Origin: an uncultured Bacilli bacterium
GTDB lineage: Bacteria; Bacillota_I; Bacilli_A; RF39; UBA660
Assembly (NCBI GenBank): GCA_947589435.1
Contig: CANQBI010000003.1
Coordinates: 1 to 55,891 of the forward strand
Length of the DNA stretch: 55,891 bases
Direction of reading: 5' to 3'
Numbering within the stretch: the stretch's first letter is position 1; each line of letters begins with the position of its first letter. Position numbers and translations under genes: made by a program. The notes beneath the pieces were generated by a model that did no database searches, was not told the origin of the DNA, and saw only the letters and a list, made by a program, of their open reading frames with translations. Of the stretch, positions 246 through 55,375 are shown in pieces.

Positions 246-1421
246 TTAACTAACTATCCTATCCGATATTATAAATGGATTACTTTCTGTTCCTTCTCCT
301 GATATGCTTATCTCGGATATTAGATAAAAGACTGGACGAACAGCATCCACACTGCCACCGAAAGGTAAGGAAGTAGTTAGACTCCCTTCTGAGCGCACAA
401 AAAATACATCATCATTATCGATTCCCCTCGACATAGTCCATTCATAATCTTTGCCAGAAAAAGTAGATAAGCCATTTCTTATAAATAACCAGTTTGTTAA
501 ATTCTTATATTCATTTGGACCTGCATTTATATAATCGCTTTGATACATTAATCCTATTTTATGATTATTATTAGATAACGTTTGCTTTTCCTCTGAACTA
601 CCATCCCTCGCCGTAGATCCGCCTACATACCATTTTGGATTACTTATAATACTTTTGTCACCAATAGTTACTGATGCACCTGTCAAAAAAGTTGATTCTA
701 AATATTCAAGTACTTTTGATCCCTCCCAACTTGTACAAGTATAACAAGTACTCCAACCTTGATTATCATTACTTGACGTTGCTTTGATTATCTTTAATTG
801 ATCTTTTACGAGTCCTAAATTTGTATTTACATTTTCTGTTGTTATTCCTATTATTCTATACATGTATGTATTTTTATCAGCTAAACATATATCTTTATTT
901 TCAGTACCAAAACATATGAAGTTATTTATTTTATTACTTGTTACATCACTTTGAGTTCCTACATATCTTAAGAGTTCATCACCTTCATATGCTGTTTTTA
1001 AATATTGTTCTGATGTTGTTTGCTTCATTAATTTTAACACTGTACTTTTTCTCGCAAATTTAAGTGTACAATAGATTGTTCTGTCTGTTGAAATTGTTGC
1101 CTTATTTCCCTCTATATTAAATTGTAATATATCTGTTGTTGGTGTTATTTGATTTCCATTTACATCTTCACATTCACTTCCATAATACTCAAATATATCT
1201 TTATCAGGCCATTTTATTCTTGTGGTATCTTCATCCCACCCAAAACTATCATTTTGTACTTTTATAGCGATTTGCTTACTATCTTTTAAATTTTCTACAA
1301 TTTGAATATTTTCTAATACTTTATTATTTGAATTATTTAATTCTTTTACATAATTATATAATTCATATACTACTCCAATTGTAAATATTACTATTAATAT
1401 ATTTAATACTTTTCTATTCAT
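246..1421 (-). CDS. Membrane-anchored surface protein with a C-terminal DUF6273/C-type-lectin-like domain and a DGR-like variable end
   Basis: 391 aa. N-terminal TM helix, Cys-containing module (WP...EC.D..G...IYCTL.FA), then NNFICFG..YRIIG..KIGLMY.SDY..NWL..EWTMS..VRPVFYL..G.GT..NPF. Paralog of 29550-30665. Confidence 0.75.
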   Translation of the reverse strand: MNRKVLNILIVIFTIGVVYELYNYVKELNNSNNKVLENIQIVENLKDSKQIAIKVQNDSFGWDEDTTRIKWPDKDIFEYYGSECEDVNGNQITPTTDILQFNIEGNKATISTDRTIYCTLKFARKSTVLKLMKQTTSEQYLKTAYEGDELLRYVGTQSDVTSNKINNFICFGTENKDICLADKNTYMYRIIGITTENVNTNLGLVKDQLKIIKATSSNDNQGWSTCYTCTSWEGSKVLEYLESTFLTGASVTIGDKSIISNPKWYVGGSTARDGSSEEKQTLSNNNHKIGLMYQSDYINAGPNEYKNLTNWLFIRNGLSTFSGKDYEWTMSRGIDNDDVFFVRSEGSLTTSLPFGGSVDAVRPVFYLISEISISGEGTESNPFIISDRIVS

Positions 1422-1432
1422 TTTTAATTCTC

Positions 1433-2971
1433 CTAACTCACCTTATCAAAGTATGCATAACAAGTATTCTTACCAGTTGTTGTATATGTAAATCCTTTTG
1501 TTTCATCATATATTATATCTGTTGTAACATTATCTAAATTATCACATTCATAACTAGACATTGTATATCCTTTAGGTATTCTTCCATCTGCAATATATGT
1601 TTTATTATTTTTTATTGTAACTATACTTCCTGTTTCTGATTCTATATAAGTTGTTATTCTTATATCTCCATCTTTTATTTCATATGGTGTTAAATTAAAA
1701 CTATAGTATATTCTGCACACCACTTGATAGGGTTTATCTTCCGAAACATTTATTGTTACTCTTCCATCATCATTTATATAATAATCCGGGTAATTAACTG
1801 TACTACTTTCTTTAGGTATACAATTACTTTTACTTTTATCAAGTTTATAATTATTTTTAACATCTAATGGTGGGATATTATATAAAATATATTGACCGAG
1901 ATTAAAATGGTCTTCAATATAATACATTACATTTATGTCTGAAGTTTTACTTATGCTTGATGTGTCTCCAGTTGTAGAACTAGGTCTTTTGTATAATGCT
2001 GTTTTTTCGATTATAAAGGGATTCTCTTCTGTACCACTTCCGTTTATCTTCACATTACTTCTTAAATACATTACAGGTCTTATTAAATATTTATTGGTAA
2101 CAGACGTATAACTTACATTACCAGATGACGATATATACCAAGAATAATTAATATTATATCTTGACATTGTCCATTCATTACCACTTGAATCACTTGGATA
2201 ATTAGTGTCATTATTGCTTATATGTAACCAATTACCAGTTTTACAACTACTTCCAGAATAACAATTGGCATCATTTCCCATTGCTAAATAATAATCACTT
2301 AAATACATTAAACTAACCTTAGAATTAACGACATTTTCTCCCCAATTTTTCTTTTCATTTTCTAACAAAGTTGTTCCAGTATATGATGAAATACTAATTA
2401 AGTCGCCATAATCATATGCATAATCGGCAATTCCAATCAGCCAATTATTATCTTGTAAATAAGAGTAATCGCTACTTTTTAGAAAATAACTTTTTTTTAA
2501 TCCAATATATAGAGAAGAATTATTCCAAGTTACATCAGATGAACGATTCCAAGAATATGATATATCTAATGCCTCTTTTTTAATTATTTTTAATTCTTGG
2601 GTTTTTGTATCTATTCCTATTATACGATACATATATTTATCTTGATTTTCTATACACTCATTCTTATCTTTTGTTCCAAAACAAATATAATTATTTACGC
2701 TACTTCCTTGGTATCTTCTTAACCTATCATTTCTTACTTGCATATTTTCTCGTGTTTCTAAACCACTATTTTCTTGTGATTCCAAATATTCTTCTATGTC
2801 TTGTGTAGAAAAATTTCCTACTTTGGAAGTAAATATAGGTACTGGTTCCATCTCATAATTATAATAAGCATGAGTATTTCTTAAACAAATAAATAAGACC
2901 ATAACAAAAAAACATATTATTAGATATATTACTTTTATATTTAAGAATTTTTTTAATCTTTCCTTTATCAT
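1433..2971 (-). CDS. Secreted surface protein: SipW-like signal (THA-YYNYE), DUF6273-like domain, C-terminal Cys module
   Basis: 512 aa, RBS AAGAGG. N-terminal block shared with 30681-31500 and 53199-55260; C-terminal module shared with 30681-31289 (NC.P..QVVCR.YY..NTCY.YF). Confidence 0.75.
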   Translation of the reverse strand: MIKERLKKFLNIKVIYLIICFFVMVLFICLRNTHAYYNYEMEPVPIFTSKVGNFSTQDIEEYLESQENSGLETRENMQVRNDRLRRYQGSSVNNYICFGTKDKNECIENQDKYMYRIIGIDTKTQELKIIKKEALDISYSWNRSSDVTWNNSSLYIGLKKSYFLKSSDYSYLQDNNWLIGIADYAYDYGDLISISSYTGTTLLENEKKNWGENVVNSKVSLMYLSDYYLAMGNDANCYSGSSCKTGNWLHISNNDTNYPSDSSGNEWTMSRYNINYSWYISSSGNVSYTSVTNKYLIRPVMYLRSNVKINGSGTEENPFIIEKTALYKRPSSTTGDTSSISKTSDINVMYYIEDHFNLGQYILYNIPPLDVKNNYKLDKSKSNCIPKESSTVNYPDYYINDDGRVTINVSEDKPYQVVCRIYYSFNLTPYEIKDGDIRITTYIESETGSIVTIKNNKTYIADGRIPKGYTMSSYECDNLDNVTTDIIYDETKGFTYTTTGKNTCYAYFDKVS

Positions 2972-3051
2972 ATCAAACCTCTTATGTTTAAAATACCGAT
3001 ATAATATTTTATAATTTTAATTATAATAGGTATTTTTTATTAAAGGTCGAG

Positions 3052-11139: not shown

Positions 11140-11401
11140 CCTTAGTTTAAATAACTTCTCCGCGTAATTTAAAATTACTCTCCATAATTTTAAATATTAA
11201 CTAAATATTATCAGTATTTAGTGCAGATAGCTTATCTTTAGAGTTTTCTTTCTCTTAAAACAATTGTCTTTACTTAGCGTAGATAAGATTATTATTACAT
11301 AATTTATTTACTAATTAAATATATCTTTCACACATAGCAACATTACTACAAAACATAATAACTTCTAACTATGACTACTAAATATATTATCTTTACTAAG
11401 T
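11109..11401 (-). ncRNA. Candidate stand-alone RNA of about 290 nt, class unknown
   Basis: Bounded by a consensus sigmaA promoter and an intrinsic terminator; the only ORF I noticed is 13 codons with a weak RBS. Confidence 0.45.
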
Positions 11402-27057: not shown

Positions 27058-27549
27058 ATGAAATTAAATCGTTTTTTAATTATCTTCATTTGTTTTATTT
27101 CTATCCTTTTTATGAGCGTAGGTTATTCCTCTTTTGCTGAAGACCTCTTAATTGGAGGCAATGCCGAAATTGTCGGAAAGTGGAACATCAAAATTACGAG
27201 TGTTGAAGTTACTTATGCCTCTGCTGGTTTAAATGTTGATACCCCCACTTTTACGGATACCACTTTTGATTTTTCCCTTAAGTTAAATAAACCTGGTGAT
27301 AAAGTAATCTATACTATTACAATTCAAAATGCCGGAACCATTGATGCCATTTTACAAAGTTTAGTCTTTAATGAAGAAATTGGCGGTTCTGAAGCCATTA
27401 GTTATACCGTCAGTAAAACCCCAACAGATTTAAATGCGGGTGATACGACAACTTTAGAACTTACCATTACTTATAATGAAAGCACGGAAGAATTACCTAA
27501 AGTTTTAACTAAAAGTTTAACAGGAACCATTACTTATGCCCAAAAATAA
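27058..27549 (+). CDS. Secreted TasA/CalY-like putative SipW substrate (fibre subunit)
   Basis: 163 aa; signal ending MSVGYSSF..L.IGG.A.I...W.I.IT; beta-rich body; directly upstream of a SipW-type peptidase. Confidence 0.6.
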   Translation: MKLNRFLIIFICFISILFMSVGYSSFAEDLLIGGNAEIVGKWNIKITSVEVTYASAGLNVDTPTFTDTTFDFSLKLNKPGDKVIYTITIQNAGTIDAILQSLVFNEEIGGSEAISYTVSKTPTDLNAGDTTTLELTITYNESTEELPKVLTKSLTGTITYAQK

Positions 27550-27557
27550 GGTCATTT

Positions 27558-28616
27558 ATGAAAAAAACTATCTTTATTTACTTTATTCTTATTATCCTTC
27601 TTATTATTTTTCATCTTTTTTATTATTCTCTCTTAATTAAATTTATTATTCCTCTTTTATCCCTTATATATCTTATTTATAATTATCTTAATTATAAAAA
27701 TATTATGACTTTTAAAAATAAATATTATCTTCCTCTTATTATTCTAATTTCTTTATTATTTTTAAACTTTTATTTCGAAATTGGTCTTTTTTATGGGTAT
27801 ACTCTTAATCCTTTAAAGCATCTTTTAACTAACATCATAGATAGTATTATCCCTCTTATTAGTATCGAATTATTAAGACATAATCTAATAAAGAATCAAA
27901 AGAACAAGCCCTTTATTATTACTCTTTTAATTATTTTTTTAGAACTTAACTATCATACTCTTTTCACTCTTAATCTAAAAAGAGATTTATATACTTATTT
28001 TTGTTCCGAAGTTATTCCTTTAATCTTATCCAACTTTCTTTTTACTTATTTAACTATTCATTTTCATTATACATATTCCATTATTTTAAATATATTAGAT
28101 AAATTAATTATTTATTTTGTTCCGTTTCTTCCAAAGACTAATTGGTACTTAATTGGCACCAGTAGTCTAATTAAAATAAGCTTATGCTTTATAATATTCC
28201 AATATATTTTCAATAAAAAACATAAAGTTAATATCTTTCCATCTTTTCTTACCATCATAATGGTAATATTACTCACTCTTTTTACTTTAGGTATGTTTAA
28301 GTATGAAGCTATTGTTATTCTTTCTAATAGTATGTATCCCACACTTGAAAAGGGAGATATAGTAATTTATGACAAAGATATTCAAAATGTCCATGAAAAA
28401 GACATAATTGTTTTTGAAACTAAAGATAAAACTATTATCCACCGCGTAGTTAAAAAAATTAATAATTCTTATTTAACTAAAGGTGATAATAACAATGTCA
28501 TTGATAATTATAAAGTAGATAAAAAAGACATTAAAGGTGTCTACAAATTTTCCTTAAAATACTTAGGAGTTCCAGCAGTTTATTTAGAAGAATTTTTAAA
28601 TAAAGGAGGGACATAA
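27558..28616 (+). CDS. Signal peptidase I, SipW/S26B type, with a long polytopic N-terminal region
   Basis: C-terminal SNSMYPTL..GDIV...IIHRV...TKGDNN...D motifs (Ser-His type); about 230 aa of upstream TM helices. Confidence 0.85.
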   Translation: MKKTIFIYFILIILLIIFHLFYYSLLIKFIIPLLSLIYLIYNYLNYKNIMTFKNKYYLPLIILISLLFLNFYFEIGLFYGYTLNPLKHLLTNIIDSIIPLISIELLRHNLIKNQKNKPFIITLLIIFLELNYHTLFTLNLKRDLYTYFCSEVIPLILSNFLFTYLTIHFHYTYSIILNILDKLIIYFVPFLPKTNWYLIGTSSLIKISLCFIIFQYIFNKKHKVNIFPSFLTIIMVILLTLFTLGMFKYEAIVILSNSMYPTLEKGDIVIYDKDIQNVHEKDIIVFETKDKTIIHRVVKKINNSYLTKGDNNNVIDNYKVDKKDIKGVYKFSLKYLGVPAVYLEEFLNKGGT

Positions 28617-28618
28617 CT

Positions 28619-29482
28619 TTGAAAAAAACTTTATTATTTACGATTTTTTCTTTTATTTTAATTATCATCGGTTTAGTAATTCTTATTCTTGCATTCTTTA
28701 AACCAAACAATCTTCATAATTTAGATATTCAAAATAAATCTTCTTATGAAGTTACATATAATGATAATAATTATTTTTCTAATAATATTATTCCCGAAAA
28801 CAATTATTATATTACTTCTTTAATTAAAGATATTAATATTAATTATGATATTTTAATTAATAACTTAAAACAAAATAACTATACTTATAAAATAAATATT
28901 AAATTACAATCTAATTATGAAAATAATCCAATCTTTGAAAAAGAATATCCCCTAAAAAATAATAATTTAACAAACAATATTAATGAACAAATAGTTATTG
29001 ATTATAATTATTATTTAAATTATATTAATAATTTTGAAAGTAATCTTAATCTTAAAACAGACTCTTCTCTTTTAATAGAACTAAACATAATAGATAATGA
29101 TACTACTCTAAATTATCTTAATATTACTATTCCTTTAAAAGAAAAAGTTATCTTTATCGAAGAAAATGATAATTTTAACAAACAAGAAAGTAATAATTTT
29201 AATCATAATTATTTTACTATTTCCATAATTCTTATTACTTCCGGTATTTTTATTAATCTTTATTTTAATAAAAGTAATAACTTTAAAAGAATTATCAAAG
29301 AATATAAAAGTTTAATTATTAAAATACTAGATAATCCTAATATAAATAATTATGAAGTTATTAATATAACCTCAATTGAAGATTTAATTAAAATATCTTT
29401 ATCTAATGATTTAAATATTTTAAATTATAATAATAAATATTTTATAATTAAAGAAAATATTATGTATTTATATACTAAATAA
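28619..29482 (+). CDS. DUF5305-like membrane protein
   Basis: Two TM helices flanking an extracellular domain; cytoplasmic tail RIIKEYKSLIIK...SIEDLIKIS..L...IL. The family name is from memory of SipW gene clusters. Confidence 0.55.
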   Translation: MKKTLLFTIFSFILIIIGLVILILAFFKPNNLHNLDIQNKSSYEVTYNDNNYFSNNIIPENNYYITSLIKDININYDILINNLKQNNYTYKINIKLQSNYENNPIFEKEYPLKNNNLTNNINEQIVIDYNYYLNYINNFESNLNLKTDSSLLIELNIIDNDTTLNYLNITIPLKEKVIFIEENDNFNKQESNNFNHNYFTISIILITSGIFINLYFNKSNNFKRIIKEYKSLIIKILDNPNINNYEVINITSIEDLIKISLSNDLNILNYNNKYFIIKENIMYLYTK

Positions 29483-29549: not shown

Positions 29550-30665
29550 TTATGCATTATTCTTAGTTGTGATAATGTATGGATGGTCTTTTGTTCCTTC
29601 TCCTGTTAAGTTTACCCCGGATTGTAGATAGAAGACTGGGCGAATCCATTCTCCGTAGTACTCCCACATTGTAAAACGTCCTCCATCATCAATCAACCAA
29701 CTATATTGACTTTCAGTCACAGACATAGTGAGTTCGTAATAATGAAAATCATCATATTTTTGATATAACCAATTACTAGTATCTTGACTCCCAGAATTTT
29801 TATAATCTGTATAATACATTAAGCCTATTTTAAAATCAGAGGAAAAATTTGTTTTTAATTCTGATGATACATCACTATCATGTGGTGTAACGTACCATTT
29901 ATGATTACTTATAATTGATTCCCAATAATTACCATTATTTTGATTAAGAATAGAATTTATAAATGTTGTATTTAGTTCTGTTTTGCACGGTGAAGTTTCA
30001 AATTGTTTAGACATATAACAATTATATGAAGATATTATTTCAGTTTTAATAATTTTTATTTGATCTTTTTTTAATCCAACTAAATCATCATTTGCACTTG
30101 TTATTCCTATTATCCTATACATATAGGTATTTGGCGTTCCTGTGCATGTGCTTTCTACTGTTGTTCCAAAACATATATAGTTATTTAATACTTGTGTATT
30201 TGTTCCTTTAAATCTATACATTCCATCTACGGCACTTGTACTGTTAAAGGTACCTCCACCTTTCTTTGTTAAATGGTCTAATGCTGGTTCTCCTTTAGCA
30301 AAGTACAGAGTACAATATATACTATTTTTTGTATCTATTGTGGCATGATAAGTTGATAAATCAAAATGCAGTATATTTGTATAATCTATTTCTTTTCCAT
30401 CACTATCTGTACATTCTGCTCCAACAAAACCATGAGTTGTTGGACTTGGCCATGTATCTCTATTATCAGATTCATGCCATTCTTCTCCTTCATTATCTTG
30501 TACCCATATGGCTATTGATTTATCATTACTTAATGTATTATTAGTTTGTATTTTTTCTATCTTATTTGGTTTGATATTTAAAGTTCTTATGATGTTATAA
30601 CTTTCTCCTAATATTAAAACTCCTACTATAATTATGATTATTGTTAATATTTTATCTTTCTTCAT
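29550..30665 (-). CDS. Membrane-anchored surface protein with a C-terminal DUF6273/CLec-like domain and a DGR-like variable end
   Basis: 371 aa; same architecture as 246-1421. Confidence 0.75.
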   Translation of the reverse strand: MKKDKILTIIIIIVGVLILGESYNIIRTLNIKPNKIEKIQTNNTLSNDKSIAIWVQDNEGEEWHESDNRDTWPSPTTHGFVGAECTDSDGKEIDYTNILHFDLSTYHATIDTKNSIYCTLYFAKGEPALDHLTKKGGGTFNSTSAVDGMYRFKGTNTQVLNNYICFGTTVESTCTGTPNTYMYRIIGITSANDDLVGLKKDQIKIIKTEIISSYNCYMSKQFETSPCKTELNTTFINSILNQNNGNYWESIISNHKWYVTPHDSDVSSELKTNFSSDFKIGLMYYTDYKNSGSQDTSNWLYQKYDDFHYYELTMSVTESQYSWLIDDGGRFTMWEYYGEWIRPVFYLQSGVNLTGEGTKDHPYIITTKNNA

Positions 30666-30680
30666 TTTATTTTCTCCCTT

Positions 30681-31500
30681 CTATTTACTAAAGTATCCAT
30701 AACAAGTATTTGGTCCAGTTGTATCTATATGAAAGCCATTAGTATCATGAGTAAATGTTGTACTTGCTTTTTTACTTTTACACTCATACGTTATCATAGA
30801 ATAACCATCAGGAACTTGATTATATAATTTATATGTTTTATCATTATATTTTCTATCTCCTGTACTATCTTCTATATAAGCATAAATAATAACATCGGAT
30901 AATTTATCTCTGTCATAATAAAGTCGACATACTACTTGTGTTGGTTTAGTTTCTTCTGTATATTCTATATGGACAGTTCCATCTTCTTTTATAGTGTAAT
31001 TTTCATAAGTTGCATCTCCACCTTCTGCTGGATAACAATTTGATTTATCCCCATTTATTTGATATCCACTGGCGGGTACATATTTACTCTCTTTATATTT
31101 ATCAGCATTATCAGGCATTTGGGTATAAAAGATTATATTTACATCGGTATTCTTATCTATTGGACCTTGTTTAACACTTTCTCCTTCTCCAGCAAAGTTT
31201 CCAACTTTACTTGTAAATATAGGTACTGGTTCCATTTCATAATTATAATAAGCATGAGTTTTATTAATTGCTACATTTATTAATAACAATACAAAAAATA
31301 CTAATACGAATATTCCTAATATTAGTTCTTTATGTTTTAATTTTTCTTTTATATTATTAAGTTTATCTTTTAAATTATTAAATGGTATGAATACTAAAGA
31401 TATTAGGGTATTACAATAACCCCCCCCCGATTTGGGAAATTAGAACTACTAATATAGTTAATCCTACATATAGTACTAAATTTTTATTCTCTTTCTTCAT
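30681..31500 (-). CDS. Secreted surface protein frameshifted at a G9 tract (272 aa if G8)
   Basis: ATG at 31500 with RBS GAGG reads MKKENKNLVLYVGLTILVVLISQIGGGLL* (stop 31413-31411). Removing one G joins it without stops to the track ORF 30681-31289. Confidence 0.75.
31420..31428 (-). repeat. G9 homopolymer (slippage site)
   Basis: Nine C on the plus strand in AT-rich sequence; same context as 55156-55164. Confidence 0.9.
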
Positions 31501-31610
31501 ACTCTTTTACCTCTTTTATATTATTAATTATTTAACTTATTTTTATACCAATGTTGTAAATACCGAATACCTAATACAAATAAAAAAATATTCTTCTACC
31601 TTACATTTAA

Positions 31611-31646
31611 ATAATATCTCAAAACATGCCATAAGTCAATATCTCA
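31611..31646 (-). promoter_or_regulatory. sigmaA promoter TTGACT-N17-TATTAT overlapped by two TGAGATATT direct repeats
   Basis: -35 at 31639-31634, -10 at 31616-31611; repeats at 31613-31621 and 31638-31646; same layout at 55376-55411. Confidence 0.75.
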
Positions 31647-31668: not shown

Positions 31669-32544
31669 CTAGCCTTTTATTTCTTTAACAAAGACTGGTT
31701 GTCTTAAATTATTACTTTTAGTTCTTTCTATATATTTAACTTCACATTTTAATTTTAGATTAATAATATTTTCATCATTTTCTTTTTTAATTATTTTTTC
31801 TTTTTTTATTTTTTTATATAAAGGACTCTTCTTGGCTATATTTACTTTACCAACTAAAGGATGTTTAGTGGTATTATCTCCTAGTAATAAAGTTATGACA
31901 TAATTTTCTTCTTTTTCTATATAACCAATAATATAAAAAGTTTCGTACTTATAATTTTTAATTTTTAGCCAATAATCACATCTCGTATTTATTAAATAAG
32001 GACTTGTTTTTAGTTTGGCAATAATACCTTCTAAATTTTCTTTTTTTACCATTTTATATAAATCCTTACCATGTTCATCAATATATTTAGTTTTGATAAA
32101 GACATCACTATCTTTATATTTTTCTAAATATTTTTTTCTTTCCTCTAAAGGAAGTTTAGTTAAATCTTTATCTTCATATAAAATATCAAAGGCCATAAAA
32201 GTAATGGGATTGTTTAGTGAAGCCTCTTTTATTTTAGTTTTATTTTTTAAATGAGTTCTTTCTTGTAATTTGGAAAATGATGGTTTACCATTTTGAAAAC
32301 TTACAATCTCGCCATCAAAGATAACTTTATTTTTGACTATCTTTTTTAAACTTTCTAATTCGGGATACAAATAAGTTATATCTATTAAATTACGACTTTT
32401 GATAATTACTTCTTTAGGACTTACAAAAATTAGAGAACGATAACCATCAAATTTTATTTCAAAAAGATAATCTTTGGAATTAAAAGGTTTGGGTATTTCT
32501 CTTAATAACATAGGCCCCCAATTTTTATTTTGCCATATATTCAT
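31669..32544 (-). CDS. ATP-dependent DNA ligase (LigD ligase domain only)
   Basis: FEIKFDGYR, IFDGEI, AFDILY, EGIIAK..S.Y....R...W.KIK, LRQPVF; no polymerase or PE domain. Confidence 0.9.
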   Translation of the reverse strand: MNIWQNKNWGPMLLREIPKPFNSKDYLFEIKFDGYRSLIFVSPKEVIIKSRNLIDITYLYPELESLKKIVKNKVIFDGEIVSFQNGKPSFSKLQERTHLKNKTKIKEASLNNPITFMAFDILYEDKDLTKLPLEERKKYLEKYKDSDVFIKTKYIDEHGKDLYKMVKKENLEGIIAKLKTSPYLINTRCDYWLKIKNYKYETFYIIGYIEKEENYVITLLLGDNTTKHPLVGKVNIAKKSPLYKKIKKEKIIKKENDENIINLKLKCEVKYIERTKSNNLRQPVFVKEIKG

Positions 32545-33290
32545 TTTTTCTTTTTCAAACTCTTTTCTAAGGCTTCCATTAAATCATTAATTTGAATTTT
32601 ATCTTTTTTAGTCGTACCTTTAATACTTTTACCATTTAGTTTAGCCTCAATGGCTTTTCTAATATTATTTTGATATTCATCTTCATACTTTTGGGGTTCA
32701 AATTTACCACTTAAATCGTTGATTAACTTAATGGCTAAATCCAGTTCTTTTTCTTTTACTTCACCCGTTTTATTTTCATCGGGAGTCATTACTTCTTCTT
32801 CAAAAAACAAGGTAGTCATCACTATTCCAAAGGGTGCAAATCTTAAAATACAATAGTAGAATTTACTGCCAATAACTGTTTTGGCTAAAGCTACTTTTTT
32901 CACCTTTTTTAAAGCCTCACAAAACAAATCATAAGCTTTACTTGTCCCATTATATTTTAAAATATAACTTTTTTCAAAATAGATAGGATCAATATCTTTC
33001 ACATCAATAAAAGAAACAATTTCAATTTCTTTTTCTTGTTCGGGTTTTAATTTATCAAGTTCACTTTTATCAAAAGTTAAATATTTATCATTTTCATATT
33101 CATAACCTTTAATAATATCTTTATCTTTTACTTCTTCCTTACAATGCGGACAATATTTAACATAGTTAATTCTCGTTAAACATTTTTTATGAAGTTGGTT
33201 AAAAGAAGTATCATTATCTCTAATTAAAGGATTCATAATAACCGGAATATTTACTAAACCAAAAGAAATATTGCTATGAACATTAGGCAT
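32541..33290 (-). CDS. ku: Ku protein (NHEJ)
   Basis: ISFGLVNIPV, F.QLH..C..RI.Y...CP.C...V...DIIKGYEY, IDPIYFEKSY, F.P..Y.DEY. Probable start 33290; the track start is 33353. Confidence 0.95.
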   Translation of the reverse strand: MPNVHSNISFGLVNIPVIMNPLIRDNDTSFNQLHKKCLTRINYVKYCPHCKEEVKDKDIIKGYEYENDKYLTFDKSELDKLKPEQEKEIEIVSFIDVKDIDPIYFEKSYILKYNGTSKAYDLFCEALKKVKKVALAKTVIGSKFYYCILRFAPFGIVMTTLFFEEEVMTPDENKTGEVKEKELDLAIKLINDLSGKFEPQKYEDEYQNNIRKAIEAKLNGKSIKGTTKKDKIQINDLMEALEKSLKKKK

Positions 33291-33375
33291 AAACATCACC
33301 ATTTTTAGGATAATCTTTTTAAAAATTTTTATACAAAATTTAAAATTAAACATAAATTAAAAAAGGAGGAATGTT

Positions 33376-53198: not shown

Positions 53199-55260
53199 TC
53201 AAGCACTTATTATAAATGGATTACTTTCGGTGCCACTTCCAGTTAATGTTATATCCGGTATTAGATAAAAGACTGGGCGAACCGCATACCCAGAGGCCAC
53301 ACTAACCCAGTCCAAGGTGCCGCTCGTACCCACACGCCACGCATAGTATTCGCCATAATAGTCGCCATACCTAGTCATTGTCCATTCGTAGGTACTATAA
53401 TATGTTGTACTACTACTTGTTCCATGTGTTATATGTAACCAACTATCATTATTATATGGCGACGATGTATTATATGTGTTTTTAGAATTATAAAAATCAC
53501 TCGCATACATTAATCCTATTTTATGATTTTCTGATAGACTTATTTTGTCTGTTTCAGTTTTTGATGACCATGGATATGAATAATTATATCCTATATACCA
53601 TTTTGGATTACTTATTAAATTGCTCCAACTTCCTCCCATATCATTAATTGTTTTTAAAAAACCATTTGTTCCGTTATTTAAATATATTCTTACTGTATTA
53701 CTTCCATTATCCCAATCGATATCCGAACTATAATCTACTGCCCATGCTATGGCTTTTACACTACTATTTTCTTTTACTGGCGTTGCCTTTATTACTTTTA
53801 ACATCCCTGCTTTTAATCCTAGAGTACTTTCTTCTGTTCCGTCGGTTACTCCGATTATTCTATACATATATTTATCCGGATTACTGGTACATTCTTCTTT
53901 ATTATCTGTTCCAAAACAGATATAGTTATTTATTCTTCCTGCATCCACATCTTCATATGTTCCTATATATCTTAATAATACATCATCATTTTCTGCTTTT
54001 TTTAAATAATCTTCACTTGTTGTGGATTGTAACTTATCTATTGCTGGTTTAGGTTCCTCTGGAACTATAATAAATGGTTTATCTTCACTTCCTTTACCTG
54101 ATATCTCAATATTTGATGTTAGATAGAAGACTGGGCGAAACGCAAACGAACTAGTCGGCCAAACTTTTTGCAAGTTGCCAAACGGAGCTATATACCATAC
54201 ATTTAAATAACCACCAAAATCACTGCCATTTCGAGTCATCGTCCATTCATATGAATAAACCATATCACCACATTTTTGGGAACCACTACTTAACCCATGA
54301 CATATATTTAACCAACTATTTGTATTTTGTTCATATGTCCATGAATTGTAATAATCACTCGCATACATTAATCCTATTGGATATCCTTTTGGATTGTAAA
54401 AATCATTTGTTATTATCTTTTTCTCATTTGTTATCCCAGTATTATTAAAATAGTCAAGAGTAGCATCACCCTTGTACCATTGTTGTATTGTTATTTTACT
54501 CTTCCATATTGAATCTATTGTACTATAGAAATCATTATTTAAATAGTATCTTAATATTGCTCCAGATGATGAAATTGTGTTTCCATAATCCCATGGTTCA
54601 TTGGACGTATAATTGCCTGCCCATTGCAGTGTATTTACATCACCATTGTCTTCCTTTAATGATGTTGCTTTGATTACTTTTAATTGTCCTTTTTGTAAAC
54701 CTATATTTTCATCTGCTTTGTCTGTTATTCCTATGATTCTATACATATATTTATCTGGATTACTTGTACATTCTTCTTCATTATCTGTTCCAAAACAGAT
54801 ATAGTTATTTAATTTTCCATCATTTACATCTTCATATGTTCCTACATATCTTAATAATACATCATCGTTTTCTGCTTTTTTTAAATATTCTTCATCTGTT
54901 GTTGATTGTAATGCCTCTAATGGAGGTTTAGACTCCTGTTTAACAAAGTTTCCTACTTTAGAAGTAAATATAGGTACTGGTTCCATTTCATAATTATAGA
55001 ATGCATGAGTTGCACTTATTATTCTAAATAAAGATATAACAAAAAGACCGAGAATGATATAACTTATTTCTCGTTTATATTTTTCTTTTACATTTTTTAA
55101 TTTATCTTTAAAGTTAGATGGTATGAATACTACAGATATTAGGGTGTTACAATAACCCCCCCCCGATGCTACTTATTAGAACTACTAAACTAAATATAAT
55201 TAGTTTTAATATTTTCTTTCTATCAATATGTTTATTATTTAAAATATTATCCTCTACCAT
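53199..55260 (-). CDS. Secreted surface protein with two tandem DUF6273/CLec-like domains, frameshifted at G9 (686 aa if G8)
   Basis: ATG at 55260 with RBS GAGGAG reads ...LVVLISSIGGGLL* (stop 55149-55147). Removing one G gives an open frame into the track ORF 53199-54986. Confidence 0.78.
53262..53390 (-). repeat. DGR-like variable repeat (C-terminal)
   Basis: 53271-53339 is 44/69 G+C; the variable codons end in C or T around fixed GCG TGG, GTG, ACG, GGC, TTG and GCG GTT CGC CCA. Confidence 0.65.
54120..54250 (-). repeat. DGR-like variable repeat (internal domain)
   Basis: 54129-54197 is 33/69 G+C and collinear, without gaps, with 53271-53339. Confidence 0.55.
55156..55164 (-). repeat. G9 homopolymer (slippage site)
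   Basis: Nine C on the plus strand; same context as 31420-31428. Confidence 0.9.
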
Positions 55261-55375
55261 TTTACTTCTCCTCATATGTTTTAAATACCGAATATTAATT
55301 CTATTAATAATATGGCATATAATTTTATTTTATATACCATATTATTAATGTCGCTACTTGGTATGTTACAATAAA

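Follow-up and report, generated by a model that had tools for sequence, protein, structure and literature searches.

The question raised by this locus is how a predicted secreted protein can be made when its signal peptide carries no start codon of its own, and whether a run of nine G residues ahead of it decides the outcome. The locus (locus 1) lies on the minus strand of the window, which is the whole 55,891-nucleotide stretch of DNA that was analysed. An ATG at 31500 is preceded by an AAGAGG-type ribosome-binding site (RBS), with AAAAGAGGTAAAAGAGT on its 5' side, and the leader frame that starts there reads MKKENKNLVLYVGLTILVVLISQI, followed by GGG GGG GGG and TTA TTG TAA. The codons around the run are CAA ATC GGG GGG GGG TTA TTG TAA, with the stop at 31413-31411. 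The G9 homopolymer (31420..31428, minus strand; C9 on the plus strand) occupies codons 25-27 of the locus 1 leader and is the switch itself. At this length the leader open reading frame (ORF; 31411..31500, minus strand) encodes a 29-aa hydrophobic peptide, MKKENKNLVLYVGLTILVVLISQIGGGLL, that ends at TAA, and the same 29-aa ORF is also called by gene callers in related contigs, including that of P0115.

When the run was edited in silico, G8 gave a protein of 272 aa and G11 one of 273 aa, and G7, G9 and G10 gave peptides of 31, 29 and 32 aa, respectively. Run lengths of G(3n+2) are ON and G9 and G10 are OFF, the OFF frames reaching a stop two codons past the run (G9) or five codons past the Gly codons (G10). 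The fused frame is IGGGYCNTLISLVFIPFNNLKDKLNNIKEKLKHKE-LILGIFVLVFFVLLLINVAINKTHA-YYNYEMEPVP... and enters the listed 202-aa ORF (30681-31289); from the run onward it reads IGGG-YCNTLISLVFIPFNNLKDKLNNIKEKLKHKE-LILGIFVLVFFVLLLINVAINKTHA-YYNYEMEPVPIFTSKVGNF..., and the junction peptide of the fused protein is ...ISQIGGGYCNTLISLVFIPFNNLK. A preliminary description of this DNA had set out the RBS-led ATG, the G9 run, the stop and the entry into the 202-aa ORF with 8 or 11 G to give 272 aa, and it was correct in every detail. An interrupted version of the G run for reporter fusions would be GGAGGTGGA.

The G run of locus 1 is far beyond chance. The window has a GC content of 27% (10.8% G and 16.9% C), so that 0.005 G/C runs of nine or more would be expected in 55.9 kb, and two are present. 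Runs of 6, 7 or 8 G/C are absent from the whole window. The GGG codon is rare (6.9 per 1000), and not a single GGG-GGG pair occurs in the 13,334 codons of the window's other genes. TGA serves as a stop in the window, and the standard bacterial code therefore applies.

Between the run and the cargo lie a linker, YCNTLISLVFIPFNNLKDKLNN (31353..31418, minus strand), which is coding only in the fused frame, and a Sec-type signal peptide without its own start (31251..31352, minus strand) that consists of IKEKLKHKE, a hydrophobic core and THA. No in-frame ATG, GTG or TTG occurs between the locus 1 run and the hydrophobic core. The first in-frame candidate start is a TTG at 31289, inside the core, and the only tetramer before the signal peptide that resembles a Shine-Dalgarno (SD) sequence, AGGA, is mis-spaced at about 23 nt upstream of this TTG. 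With neither a start codon nor a well-placed SD in front of the signal peptide, translation reaches the cargo only by passing through the run, whose length thus governs export; at G9 the cargo is OFF. The preliminary description had stated both that the gene is OFF in this assembly, which follows directly from the sequence, and that export depends on the tract, which is supported by the missing start signals and by the AAT that replaces ATG in comparison with relatives.

At the signal peptide the cassette genes have AAT ATA AAA GAA where cassette-free relatives read ATG ATA AAA GAA. A search with the fused protein retrieved 66 relatives, most of those read (225-243 aa) starting with their own Met, typically MIKEKLK, and the locus 1 signal peptide is homologous to the MIKEKLK... 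signal peptides of the cassette-free relatives. Because these relatives keep an ATG ahead of the same signal peptide, the switch module appears, from this comparison, to have been added ahead of an ordinary signal peptide whose start codon was replaced. In the family comparison T, A and Y of THAxY are invariant; cleavage is predicted after THA, giving a predicted mature N-terminus of YYNYEMEPVPIFTSK. A lipobox ([LVI][ASTVI][GAS]C) was considered for I-G-G-G-Y-C in the ON frame and rejected: Tyr at -1 misfits, and Cys is changed to Ser in L019.

The linker itself carries the mark of translation in the fused frame. The distance from the run to THA takes nine values (145, 148, 157, 160, 163, 169, 172, 214 and 217 nt) and equals 1 mod 3 in 18 of the 18 loci that extend far enough; were length unconstrained, the chance of nine lengths all being 1 mod 3 would be about (1/3)^8. 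In addition, the four recurrent polymorphisms in the first 12 linker codons (AAY, YTA, TCW and CCW) are all synonymous, as against 24% expected, and the three non-synonymous linker changes are all singletons. The frame kept over nine lengths and the synonymous pattern together indicate that the linker is translated in the fused frame.

A natural fused protein also exists. P0004 (270 aa, GCA_947628485.1) is encoded by DNA with G8, and its neighbour P0003 (GCA_947630195.1) has G9 and a separately called 29-aa ORF. An exhaustive HMMER search with P0004 over 1.84 billion representatives found 52 relatives, among which there is no other fused protein, and leader residues 1-41 were unmatched but for one 29-aa peptide, the leader peptide, which matches P0004 residues 1-28. 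A protein word-index search with the 58-aa leader plus linker returned one 32-aa peptide and missed P0004, so that it is not usable as a census.

Related genomes were screened by an exact-pattern scan for G6+TTATTGTAAYACC across 185,579 species genomes. Twelve true loci were found, all in two rabbit-gut metagenome-assembled genomes (MAGs) named 'uncultured Bacilli bacterium', with five in Lapin-017__bin11 and seven in Lapin-021__bin69; one additional match was due to chance. A scan of JGI metagenomes for the run plus flank gave two matches, both chance, on contigs of 41-50% GC. Assemblies in ENA from several samples added seven more copies, for a total of 19 outside the window. In the tally of 21 copies, which includes the window's two and is taken from consensus assemblies, some with low-coverage contigs (3-5x), so that lengths are somewhat uncertain, G8 occurs once (ON), G9 17 times (OFF), G10 twice (OFF) and G11 once (ON). 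There is exactly one ON copy per MAG, L014 with G8 and L012 with G11, the latter open for 245 codons beyond the run. All G/C runs of seven or more in 100 kb of related DNA are cassette runs.

Length differences are also seen at a single locus. The upstream flanks of L011 (G9) and L018 (G10) are 94% identical over 742 nt, and the two are therefore orthologous copies that differ in run length. Another orthologous locus (L008, L020, L021 and L024) has G9 in all four samples examined. The range of 8 to 11 across the 21 copies, together with the natural G8 fused protein P0004 and the coding constraint on the linker, supports the claim of the preliminary description that the run is a frameshift switch. 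As a side observation, three related contigs or stretches end within about 300 nt of a run (L018 38 nt after it, L015 42 nt and L003 about 300 nt from it); the repeated cassette seems to fragment short-read metagenome assemblies.

An alignment of 20 cassette copies delimits a conserved unit of about 330 nt. At its 5' edge lies a promoter-like site, TTGACT-17 nt-TATTAT (31611..31639, minus strand; 10 of 12 matches in a consensus scan), and TATTGACT plus TATTAT is kept in nearly all copies that reach that far; a sigma-70-type promoter function is predicted for this site. Next comes the 5' leader, a conserved stretch of about 110 nt (31501..31610, minus strand), which was delimited in the same alignment and contains the box ATTCGGTATTTACAACAT (31568-31551), conserved in all cassettes, and the RBS AAGAGGT (about 31516-31509), placed by the leader alignment. 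The order in the cassette is TATTGACT-17 nt-TATTAT, the leader with the box ATTCGGTATTTACAACAT, the RBS, ATG AAG AAA, the hydrophobic leader, ATC and the G run, and the part 3' of the run reads TTATTGTAAYACCYTAATATC...CCA, then ...AAAGATAAA. Similarity falls off upstream of the -35 element and, at the other end, within the signal peptide. The box ATTCGGTATTTACAACAT may be a candidate regulator-binding site, judging by its conservation. Rfam searches of the cassette and of the whole window gave no family at the cassette, and RNAalifold on 12 leaders gave no consensus RNA structure. Terminator-like hits at the run were discarded, as they merely reflect CCC...GGG pairing with the run and the CCC is not kept in all copies. 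Upstream of six cassettes (L003, L006, L009, L014, L015 and L018), about 350 nt are homologous between loci, with 66-84% identity; these flanks may belong to the 3' end of a further repeated gene, or they may point to tandem arrays. In the representative library, the 29-aa peptide P0115 is a leader variant that ends in IGGGVL rather than IGGGLL, which fits a T-to-G change that lengthens the run with the frame unchanged.

The repeated nature of the cassette, including a second G9 copy within the window, had been missed by the preliminary description. Only two G/C runs in the window exceed 5; each is G9, and their flanks match, the second reading ATC-G9-TTATTGTAAYACCCTAATATCT as at locus 1. The second leader ORF (55147..55275, minus strand) ends ...LVVLISSIGGGLL, then a stop, with G9 at 55164-55156, and a promoter-like TTGACT/TATTAT lies at about 55403-55376 (minus strand). 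Its cargo is read in a fused frame, YCNTLISVVFIPSNFKDKL...THAFYNYEMEPVPIFTSKVGNF (53199..55154, minus strand), which is +1-shifted relative to its leader ORF and enters a 595-aa ORF (53199-54986, minus strand) with two DUF6273-like repeats, a weak match (Pfam E = 0.013) below the Pfam cut-off. With G8 in silico, this cassette yields about 686 aa. Both window copies being G9, both are OFF, as judged from their reading frames.

A cassette-free paralog of 512 aa (1433..2971, minus strand) works as an internal control. It has its own RBS and ATG, begins MIKERLKK..., shares THAYYNYEMEPVPIFTSKVGNF, and reads MIKERLKKFLNIKVIYLIICFFVMVLFICLRNTHAYYNYEMEPVPIFTSKVGNF.... Its 5' leader (2971-3040) has the TCGGTATTT.AAACATAAGAGGT stretch in common with the cassette leader, with the box slightly changed. 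A 391-aa NNFICFG...RPVFYL protein follows the 512-aa paralog gene (locus 246-2971, minus strand).

These observations are probably best explained by a slipped-strand phase-variation switch carried on a portable 5' cassette, with G9 as the default OFF state. The cassette begins with the predicted sigma-70-type promoter and the leader region of about 110 nt, after which the RBS and ATG open a hydrophobic leader peptide of 24 codons, the last of them ATC. The G run comes next, and then some 20 linker codons that continue in frame through a Sec signal peptide lacking a start codon into the cargo. Replication slippage would alter the length of the run, with G(3n+2) as the ON state. At G8 or G11, ribosomes starting at the leader ATG would reach the signal peptide, and the cargo could be made and exported; at G9 or G10 an early stop would leave only a peptide of 29-32 aa. 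The cassette promoter is presumably active, and the run changes would be frequent and reversible within the population. Phase variation is supported by the anatomy of the cassette, by run lengths that vary among related genomes, by the coding constraint over the junction and by the natural ON allele. Against it stands the striking uniformity of G9, in 17 of the 21 copies and in four samples at one orthologous locus, which could also be a fixed, selected state. A further point against it is that the ON protein would carry two tandem hydrophobic segments, the cargo having a complete signal peptide of its own, which makes its membrane topology ambiguous. The prevalence of G9 is matched in Campylobacter jejuni, where the modal poly-G length is 9 because G8 tracts mostly gain and G10-G11 tracts mostly lose a base (PMC3401435).

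Since G9 is so uniform, a serious alternative is that G9 is itself the working state and that programmed recoding sets a low level of expression instead of a heritable on/off choice, although this is judged unlikely. Recoding could proceed by RNA-polymerase slippage on the C9 template, which gives G8 or G11 mRNAs, or by +1/-2 ribosomal slippage on the GGG codons; by reasoning from the sequence, a +1 slip on the last GGG yields exactly the G8-encoded protein. If this were so, each genome would have 5-7 or more secreted-protein genes behind one common cassette, with expression tuned by slippage efficiency. The prevalence of G9 and its recurrence at the same locus in four separate samples speak for recoding, as do the nearly invariant immediate flanks of the run and the rarity of GGG, which occurs three in a row nowhere else in the window. 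However, the conserved flanks are no specific recoding signal, because the whole cassette is conserved, non-coding parts included. Moreover, G8, G10 and G11 exist at the DNA level, in one case at an orthologous locus, the codon after the run is the common UUA with no adjacent stop or hungry codon, and neither a conserved stimulatory hairpin nor a consensus RNA structure is found. The modal G9 also has a purely mutational explanation in Campylobacter. A tRNA scan of the window for a frameshift-suppressor-like tRNA-Gly showed that no tRNA genes are present there.

It is very improbable that the window's G9 stands for a true G8, miscounted in sequencing or assembly, in an intact gene. Homopolymer lengths are error-prone, and a Bifidobacterium breve study met run lengths unlike those of the deposited genome (PMC9187656). 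On the other hand, both copies in the window are independently G9, a further 15 G9 copies occur in independent SPAdes-style (NODE_...) assemblies from several samples, and a uniform miscount is disfavoured because G8, G10 and G11 are resolved in the same assemblies. Equally hard to credit is a leader that is a free-standing gene for a small membrane protein with a cargo that is decaying or independently translated by re-initiation or from an ATA start, since the conserved 29-aa ORF with its strong RBS and the ATA sitting where relatives have ATG ATA are outweighed by a frame kept over nine linker lengths with synonymous substitutions, by cargo ORFs intact for 245-665 codons, by the lack of a correctly placed SD before the ATA, and by the natural fused allele P0004.

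Behind the locus 1 cassette lie two cargo genes. Cargo gene 1 encodes a mature part of two beta-rich domains (30681..31250, minus strand), and the 202-aa ORF listed for it (30681-31289) starts at an internal TTG. Cargo gene 2 (29550..30665, minus strand; 371 aa) has an N-terminal membrane segment, NNYICFG...RPVFYL motifs and its own RBS, 15 nt past the gene 1 stop, and is probably co-transcribed with gene 1. By analogy with B. breve, the OFF state could plausibly lower expression of the co-transcribed 371-aa gene by polarity, as the preliminary description had suggested. The same two-gene arrangement recurs in L001, L002, L022 and L024. Across loci the cassette precedes three types of cargo, namely the two-domain family of about 200 aa seen at locus 1, proteins with DUF6273-like NNYICFG...RPVFYL repeats, and the 'KPRIDxFYIK' family. 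In all loci that extend far enough the cargo ORFs run on intact over 245-665 codons, and every cargo family also has normal-start relatives, such as P0104.

AlphaFold2 on P0004 with 65 homologs (mean pLDDT 68) placed a helix at 6-24 in the leader and helices at 43-52 and 56-78 in the signal peptide, followed by a low-confidence stretch and then two beta-rich domains. Foldseek against the PDB found nothing below E = 0.08 for the predicted P0004 fold, a profile search of PDB sequences with the cargo family gave nothing meaningful, and for the cargos the hits to DUF6273 and DUF6853, the only ones from Pfam and NCBIfam, were below threshold. No family or fold match in these searches (Pfam, NCBIfam, Foldseek against the PDB, PDB profile search) supports the label 'adhesin', which the preliminary description had given to the downstream protein. 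The products are better described as beta-rich proteins, for which a Sec-type signal peptide whose T-x-A is invariant predicts secretion. Conservation in the cargo family peaks at T-H-A-x-Y...G-N-F around the predicted cleavage site, which suggests a dedicated processing or assembly step.

Convergent to locus 1 on the plus strand lie genes for a DUF11/choice-of-anchor-like secreted protein of 163 aa (27058-27549), a 352-aa membrane protein with a SipW/archaeal-type signal peptidase I domain at its end (27558-28616) and a DUF5305 protein (28619-29482), the SipW-type signal peptidase gene being about 1 kb from locus 1. This cluster (27058-29482) may process or assemble the THA-YYNY family, as a lead only. 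THA-YYNY loosely resembles the TWA-AFND of TasA, again only a lead. The NCBIfam model TIGR04088, for the SipW-cognate signal peptide class of TasA/TapA type, gave no hit at E <= 10 with three N-terminal segments, and because of this the SipW link is kept as a lead.

Directly upstream of the locus 1 cassette is a pair of genes for Ku and an ATP-dependent, LigD-like ligase (31669-33353, minus strand). The ligD-side flank is 93.6% identical over 1 kb to a contig of MAG Lapin-017 (L010, 4318), where the cassette precedes another cargo, a protein of 550 aa. A near-identical flank next to a different cargo suggests cargo exchange at the cassette, with the shared unit possibly serving as a handle for recombination by which cargos are swapped.

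The closest known counterparts are the sortase-pilus G-tract switches of B. breve UCC2003, bbr_0113a/b and bbr_1889a/b (Penno et al. 2022, PMC9187656). In these clusters the Sec signal sits on a small ORF, behind which come a G run and an ORF without SD or start. The reference genome is OFF, a one-base deletion is productive, and genes further downstream are subject to transcriptional polarity (PMC9187656). The likeness extends to the host, a Gram-positive gut commensal, to an upstream ORF with promoter, SD and N-terminal export segment, to the downstream ORF lacking start and SD, to the OFF reference and the productive one-base loss, and to more than one locus per genome. In contrast to B. 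breve, the cargo here keeps a complete signal peptide downstream of the run, and a single conserved cassette precedes unrelated cargos at 5-7 loci or more. The host also differs, with 27% GC here and about 59% in Bifidobacterium. Moreover, no sortase or pilin family was found at the locus with Pfam and NCBIfam, and neither cargo protein ends with an LPXTG-type sorting signal when the translations are inspected by eye.

C. jejuni, like the host here, is a low-GC gut bacterium in which only a particular set of genes contains G/C runs of 8-11, with a mode of G9 (Bayliss et al. 2012, PMC3401435). Its runs lie in surface-related genes, and the ON/OFF state can differ between strains at one locus (PMC3401435). 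In C. jejuni the runs sit in unrelated genes and flanks, whereas here all sit in one conserved promoter-leader-linker cassette; switching rates have been measured in C. jejuni. Neisseria opa genes carry CTCTT repeats in the signal-peptide coding region, and Mycoplasma families of the vlp/vsp type have conserved 5' expression regions. With these the cassette genes would have in common a multi-copy surface family, a repeat-bearing 5' end in each copy, independent switching and a majority of copies OFF; the differences are that the repeat here is a homopolymer, that it lies in an extra leader before the true signal peptide, and that the phylum and the cargo families are unrelated. In keeping with contingency loci, an over-long run lies in the 5' coding region, its length sets the frame, and this length differs between relatives.

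The locus is probably an example of a well-known switch type. Poly-G contingency loci are textbook cases in Campylobacter, Neisseria and Helicobacter and are barely documented in Gram-positive gut commensals, for which the literature searched held no well-studied case other than the pilus genes of B. breve. Here, uncultured Bacilli of very low GC from the rabbit gut have copied one promoter-leader-G-run cassette before several unrelated secreted-protein genes. With normal-start orthologs elsewhere, this lineage offers a clean natural experiment on the acquisition of a phase-variation module and its spread within a genome. Annotation pipelines will label the cassette genes as truncated or split. 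Elsewhere in the window, a PGK RNA motif (RF03040) at 11201-11294 on the minus strand scored 82.9 bits, well above its gathering score, as the only Rfam family found there.
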